From NCBI GenBank assembly GCA_016182565.1, contig JACPGI010000004.1, positions 174,775 to 238,774 on the forward strand: DNA of 64,000 bases. The letters run 5' to 3'. Of this stretch, positions 22,891 through 34,676 are shown one piece after another (the first letter of the stretch is position 1; each line of letters begins with the position of its first letter). The position numbers and the translations under genes were made by a program. The notes beneath the pieces were generated by a model. The model saw only the letters and a program-made list of their open reading frames with translations. It had not been told where the DNA came from and ran no database searches. This stretch comes from a candidate division WWE3 bacterium (GTDB lineage: Bacteria > Patescibacteriota > WWE3 > UBA101185 > UBA10185).

Positions 22891-24990
22891 TTAATGTGCA
22901 GCTACCATTGCTTTACTTAAAACATCAATCTTAATTTTTGTAGGTGTTGCTGTGATCTTGGCATTTCCGCCATCTTCTAAATCCCCCTTTATCATAAGGG
23001 TTGATAACTCATTTTCAATCTCTTTCTGTATTAATCTTTTAATCGGTCTAGCACCATACTCTTCACTATACCCCTTTTCTACAAGATACTTCTGGGCCTT
23101 CTTATCAAAAGATACTGTAATTGCATGATCTTTAAGAAGTTTTTCTACCTTTTTAAGTTCAAGTACTGCAATTTTTTCAACCTCGTCTTTAGTAAGACCT
23201 TTAAAGAAAATTACCTCGTCTAGTCTATTTAAAAATTCGGGCTTAAATTTATCTTTTAGTGCCTTTTCTATAATTCTTTCGATTTCAAAATCTCCAACAT
23301 TCTTTTTTGTACCACCCTCTCTATCAAACCCAATTTCAGATTTTCTTAATTGTTCTGAGCCTATGTTTGATGTCATTATTATAATTGTATTTTTAAAGTC
23401 AACCGTTCGACCTTTACTGTCAGTCATACGCCCATCTTCCATTATTTGAAGCATTGAGTTAAACACATCAGGATGAGCTTTCTCTATCTCATCAAGAAGC
23501 ACAACAGAAAACGGTTTTCTTCTTACTATTTCAGTTAACTGACCACCATCATCAAATCCAATATATCCAGGAGGAGACCCAATCATTTTTGAAACTGAGT
23601 GTTTTTCCATATACTCACTCATATCAAGTCTTACAATCATGTCTTCATTCCCATATAAAACCTCTGCTAAAGCTTTTGAAAGCTCAGTCTTACCAACTCC
23701 AGTTGGGCCTAAAAATAAAAAGGTGCCAATAGGACGTTTTGGATCTTTAAGTCCTGTTCGAGCCCTTCTTATAGCCTCTGACACCCTAGAAACTGCCTGA
23801 TCTTGTCCTATGATCCTGTCGTGTAAAAGACTCTCAAGCTTCATTAAACGATCCTTTTCGATCATGCTCAGGTCCTCTACCGGAATACCCGTCATTCGAG
23901 CAATTACCTTAGCTACATCTATTCGTGTGACATCTGGAATCTCCTCAAGTTTTGTTTTAGTCCAAATTTCCACAAGGTCAACTTTGACTTTTTCAAGATC
24001 CTCAGTTTTTTTGATTAGTTTAGCTTTTTCTTCATCAGATAAGCCCTTCTTTCTAAGCTCAGACTTAAGCATCACAAGCTCATCTTCAACCTGTTTTAAA
24101 TTTTCCGGTTCCTTTACTTGAGAAAGTCTAACTTGAGCTGAAGCCTCATCAATAACATCAATTGCCTTATCAGGCAAAAACCTATCATTAATATATCTTT
24201 CAGAAAGTTTTACAGCTTGTTCTATGGCTTCGTCTGTTATTTTTACTTGATGATGGGATTCGTAGCGATCTCGAAGGCCTTTTAATATAGAAACTGTGTC
24301 TTCAGTATTTGGCTCTTTGACGATAATGTGCTGAAATCTTCTTTCGAGTGCCGCGTCTTTTTCAATGTGCTTTCGATACTCATCAATTGTAGTTGCACCA
24401 ACCATCTGCAACTCACCCCTAGCAAGCGCTGGTTTTAACATGTTAGCAGCATCAATTGCACCTTCTGCTGCACCAGCACCAACTATAGTATGAAGTTCAT
24501 CTAAAAATAATATGATCTGACCCTGCGCATCTACTACCTCTTGGATAATTTCTTTGAGTCTACTTTCAAACATCCCTCGATGGGAAGTTCCTGCAATAAT
24601 GGAAGCAAGGTCAAGTGCAAATACTCTTTTGCCTCGTAGTGGTTCAGGAACTTGACCATTTACTATCTTTTGGGCAAGGCCTTCAGCAATTGCAGTTTTG
24701 CCAACTCCCGGATCACCTATTAGCACTGGGTTATTTTTTGTTCTTCTGGAAAGTATATGAATAACGCGCTCAATTTCCTCTTTACGGCCGATGACTGGAT
24801 CAAGCTTACCCGCTTTTGCCATATCCGTAAGATCGCGTCCAAACTTGCCAAGTGTAGAAGTCTTTTGTGTCTGTTCTTGAATTTCGTTGTAGCAAACCTC
24901 ACATAACGCCATATAAACCTGGCGTCCATCTACTATTCTGTTTGTTGAAATTACTGCAGGTCTTTGACCGCATCTGTGGCATATAACCAT
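22891..24990 (-). CDS. clpC: ClpC/ClpE-like double-AAA+ chaperone ATPase with N-terminal zinc-ribbon
   Basis: Two Walker A motifs ([16 protein letters not shown]) and the N-terminal CHRCG...CEVC. No Clp-N repeat domain is present. Confidence 0.75.
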
Positions 24991-25076
24991 TTTTAAATGT
25001 TAGCGTGTTTAGCACTCTTAGTCAATGAGTGATTAGCTATTTTAAAAACTTGTATGTGTTTTATCTGGTAATAGCT

Positions 25077-26909
25077 TTAATGTTCCCAAACATCGCCTAT
25101 AAACGGCTCCGCAATAACTGGTACCTCTTTGATAAAAAGTTCGCCAGCTTTTTCCATCTCTTCTTTTTGAATTGGGCCCCACATCTCAGCTTGATCTTCT
25201 CTAACCTCACAAACTATTTCGTCATGAACAGTTAGAATAATTCTCGCATCAACTTTTTCTTTGGCAATCCTATCTTTAAGAAAGACTAAAGCATATTTAA
25301 CAGCATCGGCATTTGTCCCTTGAATCGGATGGTTTTTTGCCTGCCTTTGTATAGAGGAAATTTTACGTTTATATTCAGGGTCGGTTTTTACTGGCCTGTC
25401 ATACCATCTTTTTCTTCCCGCCGGTGTCATACTCCAACCAACTTGTACTGCTTTTGTTGCGGAAGATTCTAAGTACTCTTTAACCTTAGGAAAGGCATTA
25501 AAGTAATTTTTCATATATTCCTCTCCCACTTCTTTTGTAACTCCTATTTGGGTTGCAAGTCCAGCAGGACCCATACCGTACATCAATCCAAACCCGATTG
25601 CTTTTGCAGCTTGGCGCAGTTCGGGATATTTTTTCTTAAAATCATCAGCATATTCCTTGTTAAACATTAGTGCCGCAGTAAAAGAGTGCATGTCAAAACC
25701 CTCTTTCATACCTTTTATCATCTGGGGGTCTTTAGAAAGATCAGCAAGAATTCGCATTTCAAATGAAGAGTAATCTGCTGTCACAAGCTTATAACCTGGT
25801 TCAGAATTAAAACATTCCCTAAACGGAGCTTCTTTAGAGTTTCTAGGAATCTGCTGTAAGTTTGGATTAGAACAAGCAAATCTACCTGTTGCTGTACGTA
25901 ATTGTTGAAAATCCGGATGAAGTCTATGGGTCACTGGATTTACCTTTTCAAGTAAACTTTCACCAAAAGCAGAAATTAATTTTTCAAAGCCGCGATATTC
26001 TAAAAGCTTTTTAGCAATAGGGTGTTGCAGAGTTGATAAAATTTCTACTCCGGTAGATGGCACATTCAAACCTAATTTATTATTTAAAAGATCCAAAAGT
26101 TGGACATTGCTGTTTAAATTAATAGCGTCCCCATATCCATCACTTGTAAACATATCCATCTGATTTACGGGATAATAAGGACGGATCACATCTTGGAATT
26201 CTTTAGCCACAAGGTCGCGTTTAGTCGAAAGTTCACTAATAATTGATCGCCACTTTGTAACATCTATGTAAATACCATTTAGTTCCATATCCCCAACCAC
26301 AGTCGTTGTAGCAAATTCTAGTTTTGCTATTTTTATTAGATTTTCTTTTTGAAGAAGGGGCCACTGTTTGTTAAACACCGGAAATAAAACTAAAGTATCC
26401 ATAGCACCATATGCTAACTGTTCCTGTGTGAATACTGAACCCTTATGTAACTTTTCAAAAGTTTTTCGAATACTTTTATCAAGATCTATATTTACATACT
26501 TTCTTACAATTGTAAGAAGTCCAAGTTGTGTGCCAAGCCCAGCAGTTAAAATTGCTTCAGCAAGCATAGTGTCATAGATATTGTTGATTTCTATTTTTAG
26601 TTGAATTTTTATCATTTTGTAATCGAATTTTCCGTTTTGAAGAAGCTTTAAAATTTTTGGGTTTTCAAGTAGGCTTTTAAGTCGCGGGTTTTCTTTTAAA
26701 TTAAGGAGTCTGGCATCAAAAATGTAGCTTATTTCTTCGGTGCCTATCTGGACAATTAGAAGAAGTGCGGTATACGGGTCAAGTCCGGTAGATTCGATAT
26801 CAACTGCAATTATTGGCTCTTTTTCAAGAAGTGCTATAGCATTTTCAAACGCGTCGGGAGTAGTAATATACTCATATTTTGGTTTTTCTGGATCAAATTT
26901 TAATTCCAC
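25077..26909 (-). CDS. polA: DNA polymerase I, 3'-5' exonuclease + polymerase domains only (no 5' nuclease domain)
   Basis: 610 aa. An exo-like N-terminus (IAVDIESTGLDPY) precedes the family-A polymerase motifs (RQAAKAIGFGLMYG, HDEIV). Confidence 0.8.
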   Translation of the reverse strand: MELKFDPEKPKYEYITTPDAFENAIALLEKEPIIAVDIESTGLDPYTALLLIVQIGTEEISYIFDARLLNLKENPRLKSLLENPKILKLLQNGKFDYKMIKIQLKIEINNIYDTMLAEAILTAGLGTQLGLLTIVRKYVNIDLDKSIRKTFEKLHKGSVFTQEQLAYGAMDTLVLFPVFNKQWPLLQKENLIKIAKLEFATTTVVGDMELNGIYIDVTKWRSIISELSTKRDLVAKEFQDVIRPYYPVNQMDMFTSDGYGDAINLNSNVQLLDLLNNKLGLNVPSTGVEILSTLQHPIAKKLLEYRGFEKLISAFGESLLEKVNPVTHRLHPDFQQLRTATGRFACSNPNLQQIPRNSKEAPFRECFNSEPGYKLVTADYSSFEMRILADLSKDPQMIKGMKEGFDMHSFTAALMFNKEYADDFKKKYPELRQAAKAIGFGLMYGMGPAGLATQIGVTKEVGEEYMKNYFNAFPKVKEYLESSATKAVQVGWSMTPAGRKRWYDRPVKTDPEYKRKISSIQRQAKNHPIQGTNADAVKYALVFLKDRIAKEKVDARIILTVHDEIVCEVREDQAEMWGPIQKEEMEKAGELFIKEVPVIAEPFIGDVWEH

Positions 26910-26961
26910 AGGTGAATTGTAATGAATATAATAAGAAACTAAAAGAGATTAGTAAAAATAC

Positions 26962-28290
26962 TTATTTTAATCTCCCAATGAGTAAGTCTCGAACAACTAG
27001 CGCATCAGCAGTTCCTTTACTTTTTTTCATCACTTGTCCAACTAGAAACTCTATTACGCTAATTTTTCCTAATTTATACTGAGACACAACTCCGGAGTTC
27101 TCTTGAACAACACTTTTTATGATTTCATCAAGATCTGCACTATCAATAGATTTACTATTTGTTTCCTGCATTTTTTTTATAAAATCCTGAGAACTTAGCT
27201 CTCGATACTCCTGTTTATTAATTAATAAATTGGCTACTTTTTCCGGCTCTAAATTGTTGGAACAAAGTTCCTCGAATCTATTAAGTAATTCTAGTCCCTG
27301 ACCTTTAGTCAAAAAGTCAGCATTTTTTACTGAAAGACTATATTCACTAACTAATCTTGTTTTTATTTTGGACGGAAGTTCCGGTAACTCCTCTCTTAGC
27401 TGTTCAAAATAGTCTTCATCGAAAACCATTGGTGGAATATCGGGTTCCGGAAAATACCTATAATCGTGTGCATCTTCTTTGCCTCGTTGGCTAATCGTCA
27501 AATTTTTGTCTTCATCATAACCTCTGTTTTCTTGTATTGGTTGAGAGCCATTTTCAAGTAAACCCCTTTGTCTTATAATCTCGGCCTTCACAGCCTTTTC
27601 CATAAACTTAAACGAATTTATATTTTTAATTTCCACTTTGTATGTTGGAATTTTTCCTTCTCTTTCCATTTCAGTAGTTCTTAAAGATATATTAGCCTCA
27701 AGACGCATTTGACCTTTTTCCATATCCCCATCAGCAATACCTAGTATACGAATCGCATCTTGTATTCTTTTTGAAAACTCCACCGCATCATCAATTGTTT
27801 TAAATGTAGGTTTAGTGACTATTTCTACAAGTGGCATTCCTGACTTATTAAAATCAATTAATGTTTTGTCTACTTTGTGCATTGATTTTGCGGTATCTTC
27901 TTCCAAGTGAATTCGCTCAATATCTGCTTTTTGACCGGAGGACAACTCTATAAAACCACTTTCGCAAAAAGGTTGTTGATACTGACTTATTTGATACCCC
28001 TTTGGTAAATCTGGGTAAGAGTAGTGTTTCCTATCAAATCTTGTATGTTCATTTAAACTACATCCTAAAGCCAAACCAAGAAGTTGTGTTTTACGAACTG
28101 CCTCAAAGTTTGGTATCGGTAAAGCACCGGGTAATCCTAAACAAACTGGGCAAGTGTGGCTGTTTGGAGCTGAATCATATATTTTTGCATCACAATAACA
28201 AAACATTTTAGTTTTTGTTTTTAAATGTAAATGAATTTCAAGTCCTAGGACTAACCTATATTCACCTAAAAGTTTTTCTAAATCTGTCAT
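26962..28290 (-). CDS. gatB: Asp-tRNA(Asn)/Glu-tRNA(Gln) amidotransferase subunit B
   Basis: GLEIHLHL...FCYC N-terminus and the GatB/YqeY-like tail. Confidence 0.85.
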   Translation of the reverse strand: MTDLEKLLGEYRLVLGLEIHLHLKTKTKMFCYCDAKIYDSAPNSHTCPVCLGLPGALPIPNFEAVRKTQLLGLALGCSLNEHTRFDRKHYSYPDLPKGYQISQYQQPFCESGFIELSSGQKADIERIHLEEDTAKSMHKVDKTLIDFNKSGMPLVEIVTKPTFKTIDDAVEFSKRIQDAIRILGIADGDMEKGQMRLEANISLRTTEMEREGKIPTYKVEIKNINSFKFMEKAVKAEIIRQRGLLENGSQPIQENRGYDEDKNLTISQRGKEDAHDYRYFPEPDIPPMVFDEDYFEQLREELPELPSKIKTRLVSEYSLSVKNADFLTKGQGLELLNRFEELCSNNLEPEKVANLLINKQEYRELSSQDFIKKMQETNSKSIDSADLDEIIKSVVQENSGVVSQYKLGKISVIEFLVGQVMKKSKGTADALVVRDLLIGRLK

Positions 28291-28293
28291 ATT

Positions 28294-28689
28294 TTAGACC
28301 CATAAAGTAACTCCCAACTGTTCGACTGCGTTTTTAAGAGTGTCTATAGCCTCTTCTAATAAATAATAACTGGGTTCATATCCTGATTCGTGCACTAAGG
28401 CGTTTCTTGTTTTATGTGCATTCCATATACGATTGTAGGTATCTTGATCGAATCTGGTTTTTGCATTTTTTAATCTTTCTCCCATAGTTTCACCATCAAA
28501 TAAATCACGCATAACATTATCCAAAGTTTTGTCCGCAGAAATAAGAGCTTGGCGAAGTTGGCTTGGACCCCCTTTTTTCTTCAAGGTTTCAATATTTTTC
28601 CACTCACGACACACAGCCTCTCTAGTCTGGAGTGTTAGATTTTTTGAGCCCCACAGATCAAGTCCAAATAAACTACTTAAAAAGCCCAT
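28294..28689 (-). CDS. HEPN-like (HepT/DUF86-type Rx4H motif) helical protein inserted between gatA and gatB
   Basis: The internal Met MGFLSS was chosen because the track start overlaps gatA. The ATG lies 1 nt after the gatA TAA and the stop lies 3 nt before the gatB ATG. The C-terminus carries RNALVHESGY. Confidence 0.5.
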   Translation of the reverse strand: MGFLSSLFGLDLWGSKNLTLQTREAVCREWKNIETLKKKGGPSQLRQALISADKTLDNVMRDLFDGETMGERLKNAKTRFDQDTYNRIWNAHKTRNALVHESGYEPSYYLLEEAIDTLKNAVEQLGVTLWV

Positions 28690-28690
28690 A

Positions 28691-30139
28691 TTATTTTTCC
28701 CCCATGGTTGGAAATTTAGTATGAAAATCTGTATGTTGTTGGTAAACGTAAGAAATTCCCAAAACTTTGTTTTCATCAAAATAATTGCCTATTAGTTGAA
28801 AACCTACAGGAAGACCTTGTGAAAAGCCACATGGCACAGTAACAGCGCAGAGCCCTGCAATAGAGCTTGGCTCTTGTAAAATATCAGCTAATTCACCAAA
28901 AAGTGGGGAGGCATCTGCAGCACCTAATTCCGGAGCAATACCTGGCATAGTGGGACCCAATATAACATCTACTTTTTTGTAGGCATTGTTAAAGTCTTCA
29001 AGGATTAAAGTTCTTACCTTTTGAGCTTTTGCATAGTACTGATCATAGTAACCGGCACTTAAAACATATGCCCCAAGCATCATTCTTTTTTTAGCCTCAA
29101 AACCAAACTGGGTTCTAGGACCTCCATATCTTATTCCATCAAGTCTTGCAAGATTTGAAGATACCTCTGATCTTTGTAAAATTGTATAAACTCCAATCGA
29201 ATACTTTGGATCAAGTAAATCTATTTCTACGATAGTTGCTCCCAGATCTTCTAATTTTTTGATCGCACCTTCAACTGATAATCTGACACCGTCTTCAAGC
29301 TCTAGGGTGAAATAAGATTTTGGAATTCCAATTTTCATACCTTTTATATTAAAGTCCAAAATTTGAGAAAAATAATCCGAAGGTTTTTCTGGTGAAGTTG
29401 TTGCATCAAATTCGTCTTTGCCAGCAATTAGCGACAAAACTTGGGCCGAATCCATTACACTTTTTGTAATCAATCCGGGAGAATCAGTTGATGAAGCCAT
29501 AGCTACAACACCATACCTACTCACTCTACCGTATGTTGGTTTAAGACCTGTAACTCCGCACCATACTGCAGGTCCTCTTATACTCCCAGCCGTCTCACTA
29601 CCAATTGCAAATATACACATATTTGAGGCTACAGCAACAGCTGATCCACCGGAGGATCCACCGGGGACTCTTGTTTTATCCCATGGATTTTTTGTAGGAA
29701 AAAAATCTGAGTTTTCAGTAGAGGAACCGTGAGCAAAGGCATCCATATTAGTCTTTCCAAGCATGATAGCACCGGCGTCTTTAAGTTTTTTTGTGACTGT
29801 TGATTCAAATGGTGGGATATAATTTTTTAGAATACTTGAACTGGCTGTTGTTTGTACTCCAAGTGTAGAAAAATTATCTTTACAGGCGTAAGGTATGCCT
29901 AAAAGCGGTTGGGTACTAAAAGCTCCAACTCCTTGGTTTTTTATTTTTTTATCTGCAAGTTCTGCCTCTTTTAATGCAGTTGCTTTTTGAAGATATATAA
30001 AGGCTTTCAGTTCCGGATCAAATCTTTCTATCTGCGAAAAGCAATCCTCAACAAGTTGAGTTGATGAAATTTCACCAGATTTGAGTTTTGTGATCGAATC
30101 TAAAAGTGTAAGGTAATTTGTGTTTTTCGTATTGTTCAT
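28691..30139 (-). CDS. gatA: Glu-tRNA(Gln) amidotransferase subunit A (amidase signature)
   Basis: Amidase signature GGSSGGSAVAVAS; 482 aa. Confidence 0.9.
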   Translation of the reverse strand: MNNTKNTNYLTLLDSITKLKSGEISSTQLVEDCFSQIERFDPELKAFIYLQKATALKEAELADKKIKNQGVGAFSTQPLLGIPYACKDNFSTLGVQTTASSSILKNYIPPFESTVTKKLKDAGAIMLGKTNMDAFAHGSSTENSDFFPTKNPWDKTRVPGGSSGGSAVAVASNMCIFAIGSETAGSIRGPAVWCGVTGLKPTYGRVSRYGVVAMASSTDSPGLITKSVMDSAQVLSLIAGKDEFDATTSPEKPSDYFSQILDFNIKGMKIGIPKSYFTLELEDGVRLSVEGAIKKLEDLGATIVEIDLLDPKYSIGVYTILQRSEVSSNLARLDGIRYGGPRTQFGFEAKKRMMLGAYVLSAGYYDQYYAKAQKVRTLILEDFNNAYKKVDVILGPTMPGIAPELGAADASPLFGELADILQEPSSIAGLCAVTVPCGFSQGLPVGFQLIGNYFDENKVLGISYVYQQHTDFHTKFPTMGEK

Positions 30140-30157
30140 ACTAAATCTTAGGTAGTG

Positions 30158-30457
30158 CTACTTCCTATCAAAAACAGCTTTTGTACCAAAGTAGTTATTT
30201 ATATTTTCTGAAGCATTGCTCAATGCCTGTTCAACACTTAAGGATTTAACACTGTCCCCATTCTGAAAAATATTTGTAAGTCCTGTTACTTGATAAGTTT
30301 CTTTTATTTTTGAGGTATCTAACTCCCCAAGCATATCCATATATTTTAAGGTATCTGTAAAAAATATTGAAAATTTGGAAATTTCCTCTTGGGTAAGAGT
30401 TAAATTACAAAGTTTTGCAACTTTTTGCACAGTTTCATGAGTAACAGCAGCTTGCAT
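30158..30457 (-). CDS. gatC: Asp/Glu-tRNA amidotransferase subunit C
   Basis: 99-aa GatC-like protein immediately upstream of gatA. Confidence 0.7.
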   Translation of the reverse strand: MQAAVTHETVQKVAKLCNLTLTQEEISKFSIFFTDTLKYMDMLGELDTSKIKETYQVTGLTNIFQNGDSVKSLSVEQALSNASENINNYFGTKAVFDRK

Positions 30458-30508
30458 AATCTTTGGTATTATAGGGCTTTAATACTGTAGGGGCAACGAT
30501 TAATTAAG

Positions 30509-31420
30509 CTACATCGATAAAAGTTTTTTTACTCTTTCTTGGACAGGTGGGTGGGTATTAAAAAGTGATGAAAAAAATCCGTCATGACCGCCTTTTAACG
30601 GATTTGCGATATAAAGATGGGCTGTTGCTCCGTTTGCAGCTTCTAATACCTCGGTATCACCGGAAATTTTTACCAAAGCGTCGGCCAAACCTTTGGGATA
30701 TCTTGTAAGCATAGCTGATGAAGCGTCAGCTAAGTATTCTCGGCGTCTACTTACAGCAAGCTTTATAAGGGTTGCGATAATTGGGCTTAAAATTACCAAG
30801 ATTAAACCAACTATCAAGATAATTCCGTTTAGTCCAGATTCAGAATTTGAACTACGTCGTCTATTTCCCCCATAAAAAATTCCTCTTGTAAACCAATCTG
30901 CCATCAGTGTAATAGTACCAACTAAAATACTTACAATAGACATAAGTAGTATGTCGTAATTTATAATATGGGAAAGTTCATGAGCAATTACACCCTCTAG
31001 TTCTCTTTTTTCTAGTTTTGAAAGGATTCCGGATGTAAAACAAATGACCGCATGCTGTGGATCTCTACCTGTAGCAAAGGCGTTTGGGGCGCTGTCCTCA
31101 ATAAGATAAATTTTTGGTTTTGTTACTAAACCTGCGGCGATGCACATGTTCTCAACCAAATGATAAAGTTCTGGATTATCATTAAAATCCACCTCTTTCG
31201 CCCCTGAAATTGCAAGAACTATCTTGTCAGAATTATAGTAAGATATAAAGCTGGAGATACCAGAAAAAACCATAGCAAGACCTATAAAAGAAACACCTGC
31301 GCCATCAAAGTAAAACTCACCAATAAACCAACCTATAAAACTAATTACAACCATAAAGCCAAACATAACAAATATGGTAGCTCTTTTATTTTCTGTTATA
31401 TGTGAATAAGTAGACTGCAT
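30509..31420 (-). CDS. htpX: M48 zinc metalloprotease HtpX
   Basis: HELSHI zincin motif within a TM topology typical of HtpX. Confidence 0.8.
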   Translation of the reverse strand: MQSTYSHITENKRATIFVMFGFMVVISFIGWFIGEFYFDGAGVSFIGLAMVFSGISSFISYYNSDKIVLAISGAKEVDFNDNPELYHLVENMCIAAGLVTKPKIYLIEDSAPNAFATGRDPQHAVICFTSGILSKLEKRELEGVIAHELSHIINYDILLMSIVSILVGTITLMADWFTRGIFYGGNRRRSSNSESGLNGIILIVGLILVILSPIIATLIKLAVSRRREYLADASSAMLTRYPKGLADALVKISGDTEVLEAANGATAHLYIANPLKGGHDGFFSSLFNTHPPVQERVKKLLSM

Positions 31421-31500
31421 ACAGTTATTATAGCTTACCTATAAAATAAGTCATTGCAATTTATCATCCTGTGTTCTAAAAACTATAGGAAAATGAAATT

Positions 31501-31749
31501 TTGATTGGAATTAAACAAATCTCTGGAAAACTTTTGATGAAGGAGCACAACATGGGCATAGTTGAACCGAAAATCATACTAATCTCACCTCTTTTGAGTC
31601 TGGAACAACATGATTTCTTGTTGGGACTGGTAGGTATCGATTTCAAATACATAAGGATGAATGACTACCGGGCCAAACTTTCTTATCCTCCTGCATATCA
31701 TGACCGGGTTTTAAAAAAACTTGAGGAATGGCAAATAAAACTAATTTAG
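31501..31749 (+). CDS. hypothetical small protein
   Basis: An AGGAG lies 7 nt upstream of the internal Met MGIVEPK, so the true start may be at about 31552. Confidence 0.3.
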   Translation: MIGIKQISGKLLMKEHNMGIVEPKIILISPLLSLEQHDFLLGLVGIDFKYIRMNDYRAKLSYPPAYHDRVLKKLEEWQIKLI

Positions 31750-31760
31750 TTTGAAACATA

Positions 31761-31799
31761 AAAGCGCTGAATTTCTCTCCAGCGCTTTTTTGCTTTTTT
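31761..31799. terminator. intrinsic terminator hairpin AAAGCGCTG-N10-CAGCGCTTT followed by TTTTGCTTTTTTG
   Basis: 9-bp stem plus a T-tract, lying between the convergent 31501..31749(+) and lemA(-). Confidence 0.6.
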
Positions 31800-31837
31800 G
31801 TTCAATATTTAAAACTCACAAAAAATACATAAGAAAG

Positions 31838-32389
31838 CTAAAATGTAACTTTTGGAGCCACCTTAGAGACTTCTTCAGCTTCAAAAAATTTCTCATCACT
31901 AAATCCAAACATGTTTGCAACAAAACTGTTTGGGAAAGTTACAAGCATAGTATTGTAATCACGAACTACAGTATTGAAGAATTGTCTTGAATAAGAAACT
32001 TTATCTTCTGTATCACTCAACTCTTTTTGTAAATTGATAAATCCCTCTTGAGCTTTAAGTTCAGGATAGGCCTCGGCTACAGCAAAAAGACTTTTTAATG
32101 CGCCTGAAAGCATATTATCTGCTTTTCCAGTTGCTTCTACACCTGTTGCACCCATTAACGCCGCTCTTGCCTTAGTAACATTTTCGAATACCTCTTTTTC
32201 ATGAGCAGCGTAGCCTTTTACTGATTCTACAATATTTGGGATTAAATCAATTCTTCTTTTTAACTGGACATCTATTTGACTCCATGCCTCTTTGATTCGT
32301 ACTTTCATTGTGGCAAGAGTGTTGTAGACATATAAGAAATAGAAAGCCAAACATATAACAAGCACAAAAAGTATTGTAGTTATTTGCAT
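31838..32389 (-). CDS. lemA: LemA-family membrane protein
   Basis: N-terminal TM helix and the LemA-conserved core AWSQIDVQLKRRIDLIPN. Confidence 0.8.
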   Translation of the reverse strand: MQITTILFVLVICLAFYFLYVYNTLATMKVRIKEAWSQIDVQLKRRIDLIPNIVESVKGYAAHEKEVFENVTKARAALMGATGVEATGKADNMLSGALKSLFAVAEAYPELKAQEGFINLQKELSDTEDKVSYSRQFFNTVVRDYNTMLVTFPNSFVANMFGFSDEKFFEAEEVSKVAPKVTF

Positions 32390-32453
32390 AAATCTCCTGT
32401 TAAGTAATTAACTGTGGTAATTATACTAAATATTCGGGTATAAAAGAAATTTA

Positions 32454-32475
32454 CCCCGCTCGAAGATAAGCGGGG
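32454..32475 (-). terminator. hairpin CCCCGCT-N8-AGCGGGG with T-run on minus strand, downstream of 32495..32872
   Basis: 7-bp GC-rich stem; on the minus strand TAAATTTCTTTTAT follows. Confidence 0.5.
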
Positions 32476-32494
32476 CAAAAGTTTGGAAGCAATC

Positions 32495-32872
32495 TTACAC
32501 AAATGAGAATGATTTTTTGCTCGGACTGACAATACGAATCTTAAGCTTCGCCTCAATGTTCTCCAGTTTGGCTAAAATCAATTTGCGCAACTCTAATGGA
32601 ATATCATTAGAGTATATTTCGATTACGAACTGATCCGGCATCTGTAAAGATTCAGCAATCTTCAATAACAACTGTTTACCAACCGGTAGATTGAAAACCC
32701 ATTGAAAAAGCTGGATTCTCCAAAAACTCTGGTGTTCAATGGTTATCCAACGATCTGGAATTGCTCTGTGTCCATTGAGATAGACAGAAATCTCTGGATA
32801 TTCTTTGAATGCATTTTCGATGGCTTCATGAAGATCACACACACCGACAGTTCTTTTTTTCTTCTTGTTCAT
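32495..32872 (-). CDS. hypothetical protein
   Basis: 125 aa; no recognised motif; somewhat higher GC. Confidence 0.4.
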   Translation of the reverse strand: MNKKKKRTVGVCDLHEAIENAFKEYPEISVYLNGHRAIPDRWITIEHQSFWRIQLFQWVFNLPVGKQLLLKIAESLQMPDQFVIEIYSNDIPLELRKLILAKLENIEAKLKIRIVSPSKKSFSFV

Positions 32873-32936
32873 GATTTCTCCTCGAGTTGACTATTTATGA
32901 AATGAAGTAGATTTGCTTAGCCTATTTACTTTTATA

Positions 32937-34676
32937 CTAATGTAAGATGTTTTGCAATTCTTTATATGTCAGTGTATTTAAAACCTCTTTTTTTGTGCAC
33001 CATCCACGCCTCGCAACATCAATTCCACTTTTCATATATAAAAGGTCGGTTACAGAATGAGCATCAGATCCTATCATCATAGGTATTCCCATTTTGATTG
33101 CGTCATATACAAGATGATCTGGTAAATCAAGCCTTGATGGCTGACCGTTTATTTCAAGTATCTTTTTATTCTTTAATGCTGCTTCAAATACTTTTGTCCA
33201 ATCAAGATCCAGTGCTTCACGCTGGTTTATAGTTCTTCCGGATGGATGACCAAGAATTGTTACATATGGGTTTTCTAGAGCTGCAATTGTTCTTTTTGTA
33301 ACTTCCTCACGTGGCATATCAAATGAGGTATGGATTGATGCAATCACATAGTCAAGTTTTTTAAGAAGCTCATCAGGCATCGCAAGTGTTGCATCTTTTA
33401 AGATGTTTACTTCATATCCAAACAAAACTTTTATCTTCTTCTGAGATGAGTTTATTTTCTCTATCTCCTCACGTCTTTTTTGCATAATTTGTTCTACCTC
33501 TTTAATCCCACGATTTATAACACTTGGGGCGTGATCTGCTATACCTATAAATTCGTAACCCAGCTCAATTGCCGCCTCAACCATCTCATTTAAAGTGTTA
33601 ACTCCATCAGATGCTGTTGTATGGACATGTAAGTCGCCTTTTATATCAGATACTTTCACAAGCTCTGGAAGTGCATTAAGTGCTGCTAGCTCTATCTCGT
33701 CTTTGCCTTCGCGTAATTCCGGTGGCACAAAGCTAAGTCCCATAAATCCATAAAACTTTTTTTCATCTTCAAATTTTTTTAATTTATTACCTTGTTTAAT
33801 ACCGTATTGAGAAAGTGACAACCCAAGGTCAAGTGCATGTTGGCGAAGTCTTATGTTGTGTTGTTTGGAACCAGTGAAATGTTGCAACAGCGATCCATAA
33901 GAATCTATGTCGGATACGAGTACATCAATTTGAGTATCATTTGTCAGAATAACAGTGGACATACGGTCTCCTTTTGATTCAACATTTTTTATCTCTGGAT
34001 ATGTTATGAAGTGTTCTATAACTTTTTCTGGGTTCTTTGACGAAACTGCTATATCAAGATCTCCCACAGTTGCAGCGCGTCTTCTTAGAGAACCCAATGA
34101 AATTGCCTCATTAACTTCTGGGATCTGTTTTAAATAAGAGATAATTCTGGATGAAATATCTTCAGCTTGGGAAAGAAGCATTCTTTGCTTTTCTTGTTTA
34201 CTTTTTTTAAGTTGATCAACGGAATCTAAAATATCTTTTTCAGATTTTGGACCAAAACCAGGAAGTTTTTGAATAAGTCCTTTTTTGGCGGCTTCTTTGA
34301 TTTTTTCCAATGCATCAATTCGGCTTAAAATATTAAATTCCTTTGAAAGTTTAAAAGCAGTTTTAGCCCCAACTCCCCTTAATACAAGTAGAGCAAACAT
34401 ACCATCTGGTAAATCTTTTTTCTTATTTTCCCATTCGGTGGCTTTTCCGGTTTTAAATAATTCAGATAAATGTTGGACTAAAGCTGCTCCAACACCACTT
34501 ATTTCACCCAAACGATCATTTTCCCAAAGATCATAAACACTCATGGTCAAGCCTTCTATCGAGGAAATAGCGTTTTGGTAAGCCCGGATACCAAACTTGT
34601 TATCGCCTTTTATTTCCATGGCTGCCACAGCCTCTTTTAACATCACAAGAACTTCTTTGTTTGAAAATCTTGGCAT
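32937..34676 (-). CDS. polX: family X DNA polymerase with C-terminal PHP phosphoesterase domain (PolX)
   Basis: Pol-beta-like HhH/fingers and palm at the N-terminus; C-terminal PHP histidines (HVHT..SDG, DAH). Confidence 0.8.
   Translation of the reverse strand: MPRFSNKEVLVMLKEAVAAMEIKGDNKFGIRAYQNAISSIEGLTMSVYDLWENDRLGEISGVGAALVQHLSELFKTGKATEWENKKKDLPDGMFALLVLRGVGAKTAFKLSKEFNILSRIDALEKIKEAAKKGLIQKLPGFGPKSEKDILDSVDQLKKSKQEKQRMLLSQAEDISSRIISYLKQIPEVNEAISLGSLRRRAATVGDLDIAVSSKNPEKVIEHFITYPEIKNVESKGDRMSTVILTNDTQIDVLVSDIDSYGSLLQHFTGSKQHNIRLRQHALDLGLSLSQYGIKQGNKLKKFEDEKKFYGFMGLSFVPPELREGKDEIELAALNALPELVKVSDIKGDLHVHTTASDGVNTLNEMVEAAIELGYEFIGIADHAPSVINRGIKEVEQIMQKRREEIEKINSSQKKIKVLFGYEVNILKDATLAMPDELLKKLDYVIASIHTSFDMPREEVTKRTIAALENPYVTILGHPSGRTINQREALDLDWTKVFEAALKNKKILEINGQPSRLDLPDHLVYDAIKMGIPMMIGSDAHSVTDLLYMKSGIDVARRGWCTKKEVLNTLTYKELQNILH

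Follow-up and report, generated by a model that had tools for sequence, protein, structure and literature searches.

The gatC-gatA-X-gatB locus and its conservation

Within the window, the whole 64-kb stretch of DNA analysed here, the listed open reading frames (ORFs) and the nucleotide sequence itself place four genes on the minus strand in the order gatC-gatA-X-gatB, where X denotes the small gene under study. The first of these, gatC (30158..30457), encodes 99 aa and matches the Pfam family GatC at E 4.9e-10, gatA (28691..30139, with its TAA stop codon at 28691-28693) encodes 482 aa with a Pfam Amidase match at E 2.2e-125, and gatB (26962..28290, with its ATG at 28288-28290) encodes 442 aa with matches to GatB_N (E 1.2e-101) and GatB_Yqey (E 2e-13). 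In the same database, the GatF model gave a weak sub-threshold match to GatC and none to X. Gene X itself lies at 28294..28689, starting at the ATG at 28687-28689 and ending at the TAA at 28294-28296, and its 131-aa product, for which a HEPN fold is predicted, has the same sequence (100% identity) as HYV31_02375, an NCBI hypothetical protein from a candidate division WWE3 bacterium. The first-pass annotation had described a 131-aa ORF wedged tightly between gatA and gatB, and this was confirmed from the ORFs and the sequence, as a single spacer base at 28690 separates the gatA stop codon from the X start codon (TAA-t-ATG) and three spacer bases at 28291-28293 separate X from gatB (TAA-aat-ATG). 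The corresponding junctions are abutting or overlapping in many relatives of the locus, including distant lineages whose flanking genes differ. A longer ORF with a TTG start, extending to 28779 and encoding 161 aa in overlap with gatA, was considered and rejected because 120 close homologues all start at a conserved M-G/F-L/F-F... N-terminus corresponding to M1 of X.

With respect to expression signals, a GGGGG run read from the sequence on the minus strand at 28699..28703, within the 3' end of gatA and 9 nt 5' of the X start codon, could be a ribosome-binding site for X. The number of promoter-like consensus sites in the region was not above the shuffled expectation, and the sole such site in a sensible place, TTGCCC-17-TATAAT at 30468..30496 on the minus strand, immediately 5' of gatC, is a consensus match only and a possible operon promoter. 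Rfam and tRNA scans returned nothing within or beside the gat operon.

The position of X was compared across two samples of loci, one collected through X itself and the other collected through GatB. Among 80 species-level genomes found through X, 75 carry gatA-X-gatB on one strand, in 54 cases tightly packed and in 21 with extra DNA; three of the remainder have one gat partner in the available DNA, one has X upstream of gatC, and one, on a contig labelled Methylophilaceae, has no gat gene. The second sample comprised 80 metagenome loci seeded with GatB and hence unbiased as to X, and here X lies between gatA and gatB in all 24 loci with GatB identity of at least 50% and enough upstream DNA, as well as in one locus with GatB at 43% identity (L114). 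An apparent exception (L100) ends inside a short-chain dehydrogenase-type (SDR) gene, which follows X in 17 other loci. Apart from L114, X is absent from the GatB-seeded loci with GatB identity of 46% or less, which belong to ordinary bacteria and in many of which gatA abuts gatB, no gatA being found in the available DNA of the others. In WWE3 the wider neighbourhood forms a collinear string, PolX-LemA-HtpX-gatC-gatA-X-gatB-PolA-ClpB, and across the loci an SDR gene occurs inside the gat operon in 18 cases and a cyclophilin gene in seven. Taken together, the X-seeded and GatB-seeded loci show that X belongs to the operon as a fixed component specific to this clade. The first-pass annotation had taken gatCAB operons to have no intervening genes, which holds for the ordinary bacteria in the GatB-seeded sample but not for this clade, where X, SDR, cyclophilin and a two-helix mini-protein are all found within the operon. 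It had also asked whether the insert is variable and had named presence at this position in all relatives, as a conserved accessory domain, among the observations that would count against its proposal. X does occur in the same place in essentially all relatives, and a variable insert is not supported.

Homologues of X are numerous. A word-index search recovered at least 284 close homologues, all from WWE3 or Patescibacteria and all 126-141 aa in length save one 103-aa fragment, and an exhaustive profile search over clusters formed at 50% identity recovered 2,284 of them with E<=1e-3, or 794 with E<=1e-10. When each GTDB species was represented by a single genome, at least 515 species proved to encode a relative of X, and the family, at approximately 2,300 clusters, is apparently confined to Patescibacteria. 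Nei-Gojobori estimates from unsaturated pairs gave a dN/dS of about 0.01-0.07 for X, with values of 0.02-0.11 for gatA and 0.05-0.12 for gatB in the same genome pairs, such that purifying selection on X is as strong as on its two neighbours. Given the close homologues, the breadth of clusters and this level of constraint, X is a real gene.

Fold, motif and the comparison with HepT

A structure of the window protein predicted with AlphaFold from an alignment with 35 homologues (pLDDT 88.1, pTM 0.80) places a HEPN-like helical core at residues 20-124 (28318..28632, minus strand), built from helices at residues 20-39, 42-63, 69-75, 82-100 and 108-124, and a second, independent model of a relative bearing a transmembrane helix (P0191) reached a pLDDT of 90.8. 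The predicted all-alpha, up-down bundle superposes on solved HEPN domains. Foldseek returned matches with a probability of approximately 1.0 at weak E-values of 0.02-0.2, and HepT toxins from MNT-HEPN systems are among the nearest solved structures. The family signature, HKTRNALVHE (H92-E101; 28387..28416, minus strand), contains the Rx4H residues R95, N96 and H100. An Rx4H motif by itself is weak evidence in a protein of 131 aa. The first-pass annotation had noted that RNALVHESGY, residues 95-104 of X, fits the Rx4-6H motif of HEPN ribonucleases, and that proposal is upheld by the family as a whole: across 60 diverse cluster representatives D53, G66, W89, H92, R95, N96 and H100 are invariant and D57, R72, L73, A91 and K93 near-invariant, while of 332 family members 331 contain RNxxxH and 326 the extended form H[KR]xRNxxxH[EDNQ]. 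In HEPN motifs the Arg is usually followed by a polar residue, here N96.

For direct comparison with DUF86, three genuine DUF86 proteins encoded on plasmids, each beside an MNT gene, were retrieved with a consensus sequence as query. In hhalign the KxRNxLVHE of the X family was placed on the DUF86 sequence GMRNRIIHE, over a short segment and with a probability of 22-25%, a low value attributable in part to the shallow DUF86 alignment (Neff about 1.8), for which the word-index search gave near-identical sequences alone. In the solved HepT structure 5yep, the segment to which these plasmid DUF86 proteins align is LRNIAVHDY (R97/H102/Y104). This alignment of the X motif with the catalytic motif of HepT agrees with a HEPN assignment, being concordant rather than conclusive.

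The window protein had no threshold match in Pfam, NCBIfam, PADLOC or PHROGs, and Pfam scans of 35, 10 and 60 relatives yielded sub-threshold matches at most, which in six of the 60 were to HEPN_Swt1, HEPN_Cthe2314, Hypoth_Ymh and HEPN_RiboL-PSP (best E 0.0045-0.035). All four of these models belong to the HEPN clan. No HEPN chain turned up when PDB sequences were searched with the family profile, the top matches being at chance level (Avr3a, ribosomal protein S20), and a broader profile search gave 1,293 matches, of which the best 120 all lack a Pfam domain. The name DUF4145 (PF13643), attached in UniRef to one homologue (P0003), was rejected, as hmmscan at E<=10 gave no PF13643 match for that homologue or for 94 further members. 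Similarly, neither X nor its relatives matched PF01934, which true DUF86 proteins in the same database do carry. As there is no significant match to a curated HEPN family, HEPN membership rests on the predicted structure and the motif, which support X as a HEPN-superfamily domain by fold and motif and a new family by sequence. The HEPN identity put forward in the first-pass annotation is thus sustained by the helical-bundle prediction and the motif and finds no counterpart in a significant Pfam or DUF86 sequence match.

Alternatively, X could be a non-catalytic HEPN protein, serving as a small adaptor made of helices or as a module that binds nucleotides or RNA, with the conserved R, N and H contacting a ligand instead of cleaving RNA, on the model of the sacsin HEPN domain or the substrate-binding domains of nucleotidyltransferases. 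The missing inhibitor would be easier to square with such a harmless binder. However, the superfamily survey generally records no Rx4-6H motif for HEPN families without catalysis (PMC3710099), the RNxxxH of X is essentially invariant and flanked by an additional invariant His and a near-invariant Lys, and no nucleotidyltransferase is encoded nearby, leaving a non-catalytic role improbable.

The structural matches to HepT, together with the HepT-like size and motif of X, also raise the reading of X as a toxin, belonging to an inserted toxin-antitoxin, addiction or defence module within gatCAB. The absence of an adjacent MNT-type partner, already remarked on in the first-pass annotation, was borne out on a larger scale: an HMM built from three MNT antitoxins, which recovered its three positive controls, found no MNT-like ORF across the 1.55 Mb made up of the window and 180 related loci, the Pfam domains listed for genes around X include none of MNT type next to it, and no other small partner gene is consistently adjacent. 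The HepT tyrosine that is the AMPylation site, named in PDB titles as Y104A and Y109F, has its equivalent at +2 from the motif histidine in one of 332 members (RNxxxHxY) and is absent from the other 331; the window protein reads HESGY, with its tyrosine at +4. The position of X is fixed in all close relatives, its dN/dS is as low as that of gatA and gatB, and it has no relatives among IMG/VR viral contigs, PLSDB plasmids or INPHARED phages and no PADLOC match. An origin of X from a mobile element was rejected on the basis of the same three collections. The toxin or addiction reading, one of those offered in the first-pass annotation, is consequently highly improbable, being not supported and largely refuted by the fixed position, the constraint, the lack of the +2 tyrosine and the lack of relatives in mobile collections. 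Instead, X belongs to the vertically inherited core genome of WWE3 and related Patescibacteria, with neither partner nor mobility.

Among known systems, X would nevertheless work most like the HepT/DUF86 ribonucleases (PF01934; Shewanella SO_3166, PDB 5yep; Aphanizomenon, PDB 7ae2). The two share RNxxxH[ED] at nearly equal residue numbers (R95/H100 in X against R97/H102 in 5yep) and, by analogy, probably the same metal-independent RNA-cleavage chemistry. Unlike HepT, X has no MNT antitoxin gene, no +2 AMPylation tyrosine and no significant match to PF01934, and its family adds invariant H92 and D53, near-invariant K93 and a GxTMGERLK element, as well as an N-terminal membrane anchor or hydrophobic stub. 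It further differs from HepT in being a core-genome, vertically inherited gene within a housekeeping operon.

Membrane features and the association with GatCAB

The N-terminus of the window protein is an F/L-rich hydrophobic stub, MGFLSSLFGL (28660..28689, minus strand), modelled at low pLDDT. A census of the N-termini of 120 homologues gave the pattern M-[GFC]-[LF]-[FLD]-[FD]-[LF]-[FLI]-[FG]-[GK]-K, and the WWE3 subfamily has a conserved F/L-rich stub of the form MGFFDFLFG..KK with no transmembrane helix, none being predicted in the window protein either. Elsewhere in the family a clear N-terminal transmembrane helix is present in 69 of 150 cluster representatives, and a strong one in 82 of 212 relatives, in which it starts approximately four residues from the N-terminus and is flanked by a net charge of -0.2 before the helix and +3.0 after it. 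These flanking charges imply an N-out/C-in topology with a cytoplasmic HEPN domain. The transmembrane form is exemplified by a CPR2 homologue (L084) within a gatA-cyclophilin-X-gatB arrangement. In 23 WWE3-type loci a mini-protein, Y, of 60-68 aa with two hydrophobic helices and no Pfam match is encoded between gatA and X, in one metagenome-assembled genome (MAG; L047) in frame with gatA; no homologue of Y was found anywhere in the 64-kb window. Taken as sequence features, these observations suggest that the X family works at the membrane, and membrane association of the window protein itself is a conjecture that follows from them.

The depth of the association with GatCAB was assessed from 10 representatives of distant members, five of which are gat-linked: one has X and gatB overlapping (P0181), one has gatC-gatA-X-gatB with different flanking genes (P0191), one has X-gatB (P0221), one has gatA-PPIase-X-gatB (P0216) and one has gatA-X-Lgt (P0253). 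The other five lie outside gat operons, at sites beside GlyRS, beside Obg, beside glutaminyl cyclase, between DUF1761 and fasciclin genes, and between phosphoglucomutase and PPDK. With half of the sampled distant members outside gat operons, X thus has a strong and long-standing association with gatCAB that is not obligatory, and as SDR and cyclophilin genes also sit in the operon, position is by itself no proof of a functional tie to GatCAB.

It is against this background that X could be read as a dedicated partner of GatCAB or the transamidosome, for example a fourth subunit or a tRNA-directed factor that binds or cleaves mis-acylated Glu-tRNAGln or Asp-tRNAAsn, or one that tethers the amidotransferase to the membrane, such that its function would make sense solely together with GatCAB. 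The gatA-X-gatB order is kept at 37-60% identity of X in lineages with different flanking genes, the start and stop codons overlap or abut in the manner typical of proteins made in a fixed ratio, and half of the sampled distant representatives are gat-linked (counting gatA-X-Lgt), with two more adjoining the translation genes for GlyRS and Obg; the reading frame shared by Y and gatA in one MAG points in the same direction. However, the distant members at non-gat sites argue against an exclusive role, there is no fusion of X to GatA, GatB or GatC among the 270 relatives listed, the operon accepts unrelated passenger genes, and the WWE3 synteny spans the whole PolX...ClpB string and so partly reflects general collinearity. 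On balance a dedicated partnership appears unlikely.

Proposed role and relation to known systems

The reading preferred here, and considered probable, is that X is a housekeeping, membrane-proximal HEPN ribonuclease without an antitoxin that is co-expressed with GatCAB. Under this proposal, the gatCAB transcript would yield X by translation coupled to that of gatA and gatB, which would make X and the tRNA-dependent amidotransferase rise and fall together in expression. On the pattern of HEPN enzymes of solved structure, X would most likely act as a homodimeric, metal-independent endoribonuclease, with an active site formed from R95, N96 and H100 together with the family-specific H92, K93 and D53. 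Its site of action would probably be on or close to the membrane, on the cytoplasmic side, as suggested by the transmembrane helix in many relatives and, for the WWE3 form, by the stub and the upstream mini-protein. The substrate would probably be a translation-related RNA, such as tRNA, the mRNA of the operon itself or other mRNAs, and a physical or functional link to GatCAB may accompany the shared expression.

One point against this reading is that a HEPN ribonuclease expressed constitutively and lacking an inhibitor should do harm, unless it is highly specific or under regulation. A role for X as a regulator of tRNA quality, which the first-pass annotation had also put forward, is possible. 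A more specific version of the proposal, doubtful at present, is that X forms the nuclease arm of a membrane-tethered, Patescibacteria-specific transamidosome, in which a domesticated HEPN ribonuclease held in a fixed ratio with GatCAB would cleave Glu-tRNAGln or Asp-tRNAAsn that is still mis-acylated, or tRNA generally when the amide donor is exhausted. If true, this would represent quality control by destruction, carried out by a fold that in prokaryotes is otherwise known from toxin and immunity systems.

To our knowledge, bacterial HEPN ribonucleases are found almost solely in conflict systems, namely toxin-antitoxin and abortive infection systems, CRISPR accessory nucleases and anticodon nucleases. 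There, a partner or a signal holds them inactive. In contrast, X has an intact predicted catalytic signature yet behaves as an essential-type core gene without a partner, an unusual housekeeping context for the HEPN fold. In its role as a conserved cellular gene, X has its parallels in eukaryotic Las1 and Ire1 and in none of the bacterial HEPN proteins characterised so far. Las1 functions in pre-rRNA ITS2 processing and Ire1 and RNase L carry KEN domains, all three being large multidomain eukaryotic proteins; unlike X, they operate with partner kinases or other domains, and no specific relatedness to X is evident. Lineage-specific extra proteins associated with GatCAB also exist, in the form of Hp0100 of the Helicobacter Asn-transamidosome and mitochondrial GatF, but unlike X neither is known to be a HEPN domain or to have its gene between gatA and gatB. 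The literature searched contains nothing linking HEPN domains with GatB or gatCAB and nothing describing the X family.

An architectural parallel is offered by membrane-associated bacterial HEPN proteins, which were predicted by Anantharaman et al. 2013 and proposed to process RNA at the inner face of the membrane (PMC3710099). These proteins combine a single transmembrane segment with a cytoplasmic, apparently catalytic HEPN domain, as in the X family. The groups set out there nonetheless differ from X, comprising DUF4145-like proteins with a WP transmembrane signature, Abi2/Swt1-like proteins with an extra N-terminal domain, and a HEPN-2TM-Zn-ribbon group, none of the membrane groups described there being reported in gatCAB or in Patescibacteria (PMC3710099). 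The X family matches no Pfam model, and the likeness is one of architecture only.

Should X prove to be an active ribonuclease, it would be a candidate for a missing housekeeping enzyme of RNA processing or decay in the Candidate Phyla Radiation, whose genomes are reduced, and might connect RNA cleavage with indirect tRNA aminoacylation. The case of X also cautions that not every mini-protein with an Rx4H motif should be annotated as a toxin. At a minimum, X represents a new family deserving of a Pfam model, with many of its approximately 2,300 clusters membrane-anchored.

A mini-protein gene between gatA and X

Between gatA and the gene for X, the 131-aa HEPN-fold protein, 23 WWE3-type loci carry a gene for a conserved mini-protein of 60-68 aa with two hydrophobic helices, here termed Y. 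This was seen in L008 (5807-5998) and in the further related loci L004-6, L009, L012, L013, L015, L020, L023, L026, L028, L033, L037, L041, L047, L049, L082, L097, L101, L107/8 and L113. No Pfam match was obtained for Y, and no homologue was found across the 64 kb of the window. A possible role for Y is that of a detached membrane anchor or of a partner for X. At one of these loci (L047 5700-6002, CAYZRJ010000029.1), gatA and Y share a reading frame with no intervening stop codon, the sequence at the junction being ..FHKEMAKNMSPRELFP.., which could represent a GatA-Y fusion, i.e. a GatA tethered to the membrane. This arrangement was observed in a single locus, and an assembly or sequencing artefact could account for it.

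Gene content and order around the operon

Other genes were also observed at the gatA-gatB junction. In 18 loci (L008 6384-7082 and 17 others), X is separated from gatB by a short-chain dehydrogenase-like gene of approximately 230 codons, and CPR2-type loci (L084 5054-5887 and six others) have a gene for a membrane-anchored cyclophilin in the gatA-X interval, indicating that the junction accepts several unrelated genes in these lineages. In the window, the operon forms part of an unbroken co-directional gene string (22891-34676, minus strand) in the order PolX/PHP, a 125-aa ORF, LemA, HtpX (M48), gatC, gatA, X, gatB, PolA and ClpB. The order from PolX/PHP to ClpB was also found in WWE3 contigs whose X is only ~52-55% identical to that of the window, and a large share of the local synteny may therefore reflect general collinearity.

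Gene calls

A longer, TTG-initiated version of the X ORF (28294-28779, minus strand; 161 aa), overlapping the last 89 nt of gatA, found no support among homologues and ought to be left out of the annotation. In two independent ENA contigs (L004 and L005, 3394-4819) gatA was called as two ORFs of 328 and 126 aa, and the near-identical Logan contig L006 has an intact gatA of 475 aa; the split is a frameshift or assembly error.

Taxon labels and members outside gat operons

An X-family member occurs on a contig binned as 'Methylophilaceae' (L058, CAXBPZ010000034.1), another (P0274) on a contig labelled 'Candidatus Aenigmarchaeota archaeon', and numerous WWE3-like loci carry the label 'uncultured Candidatus Saccharibacteria'. 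All three assignments look like mis-binning or coarse labelling, rather than true presence outside Patescibacteria. Two family members outside gat operons, each anchored by a transmembrane helix, directly adjoin other translation genes (L088 2198-4017 and L173 206-1664), one following glycyl-tRNA synthetase and one preceding the Obg GTPase.
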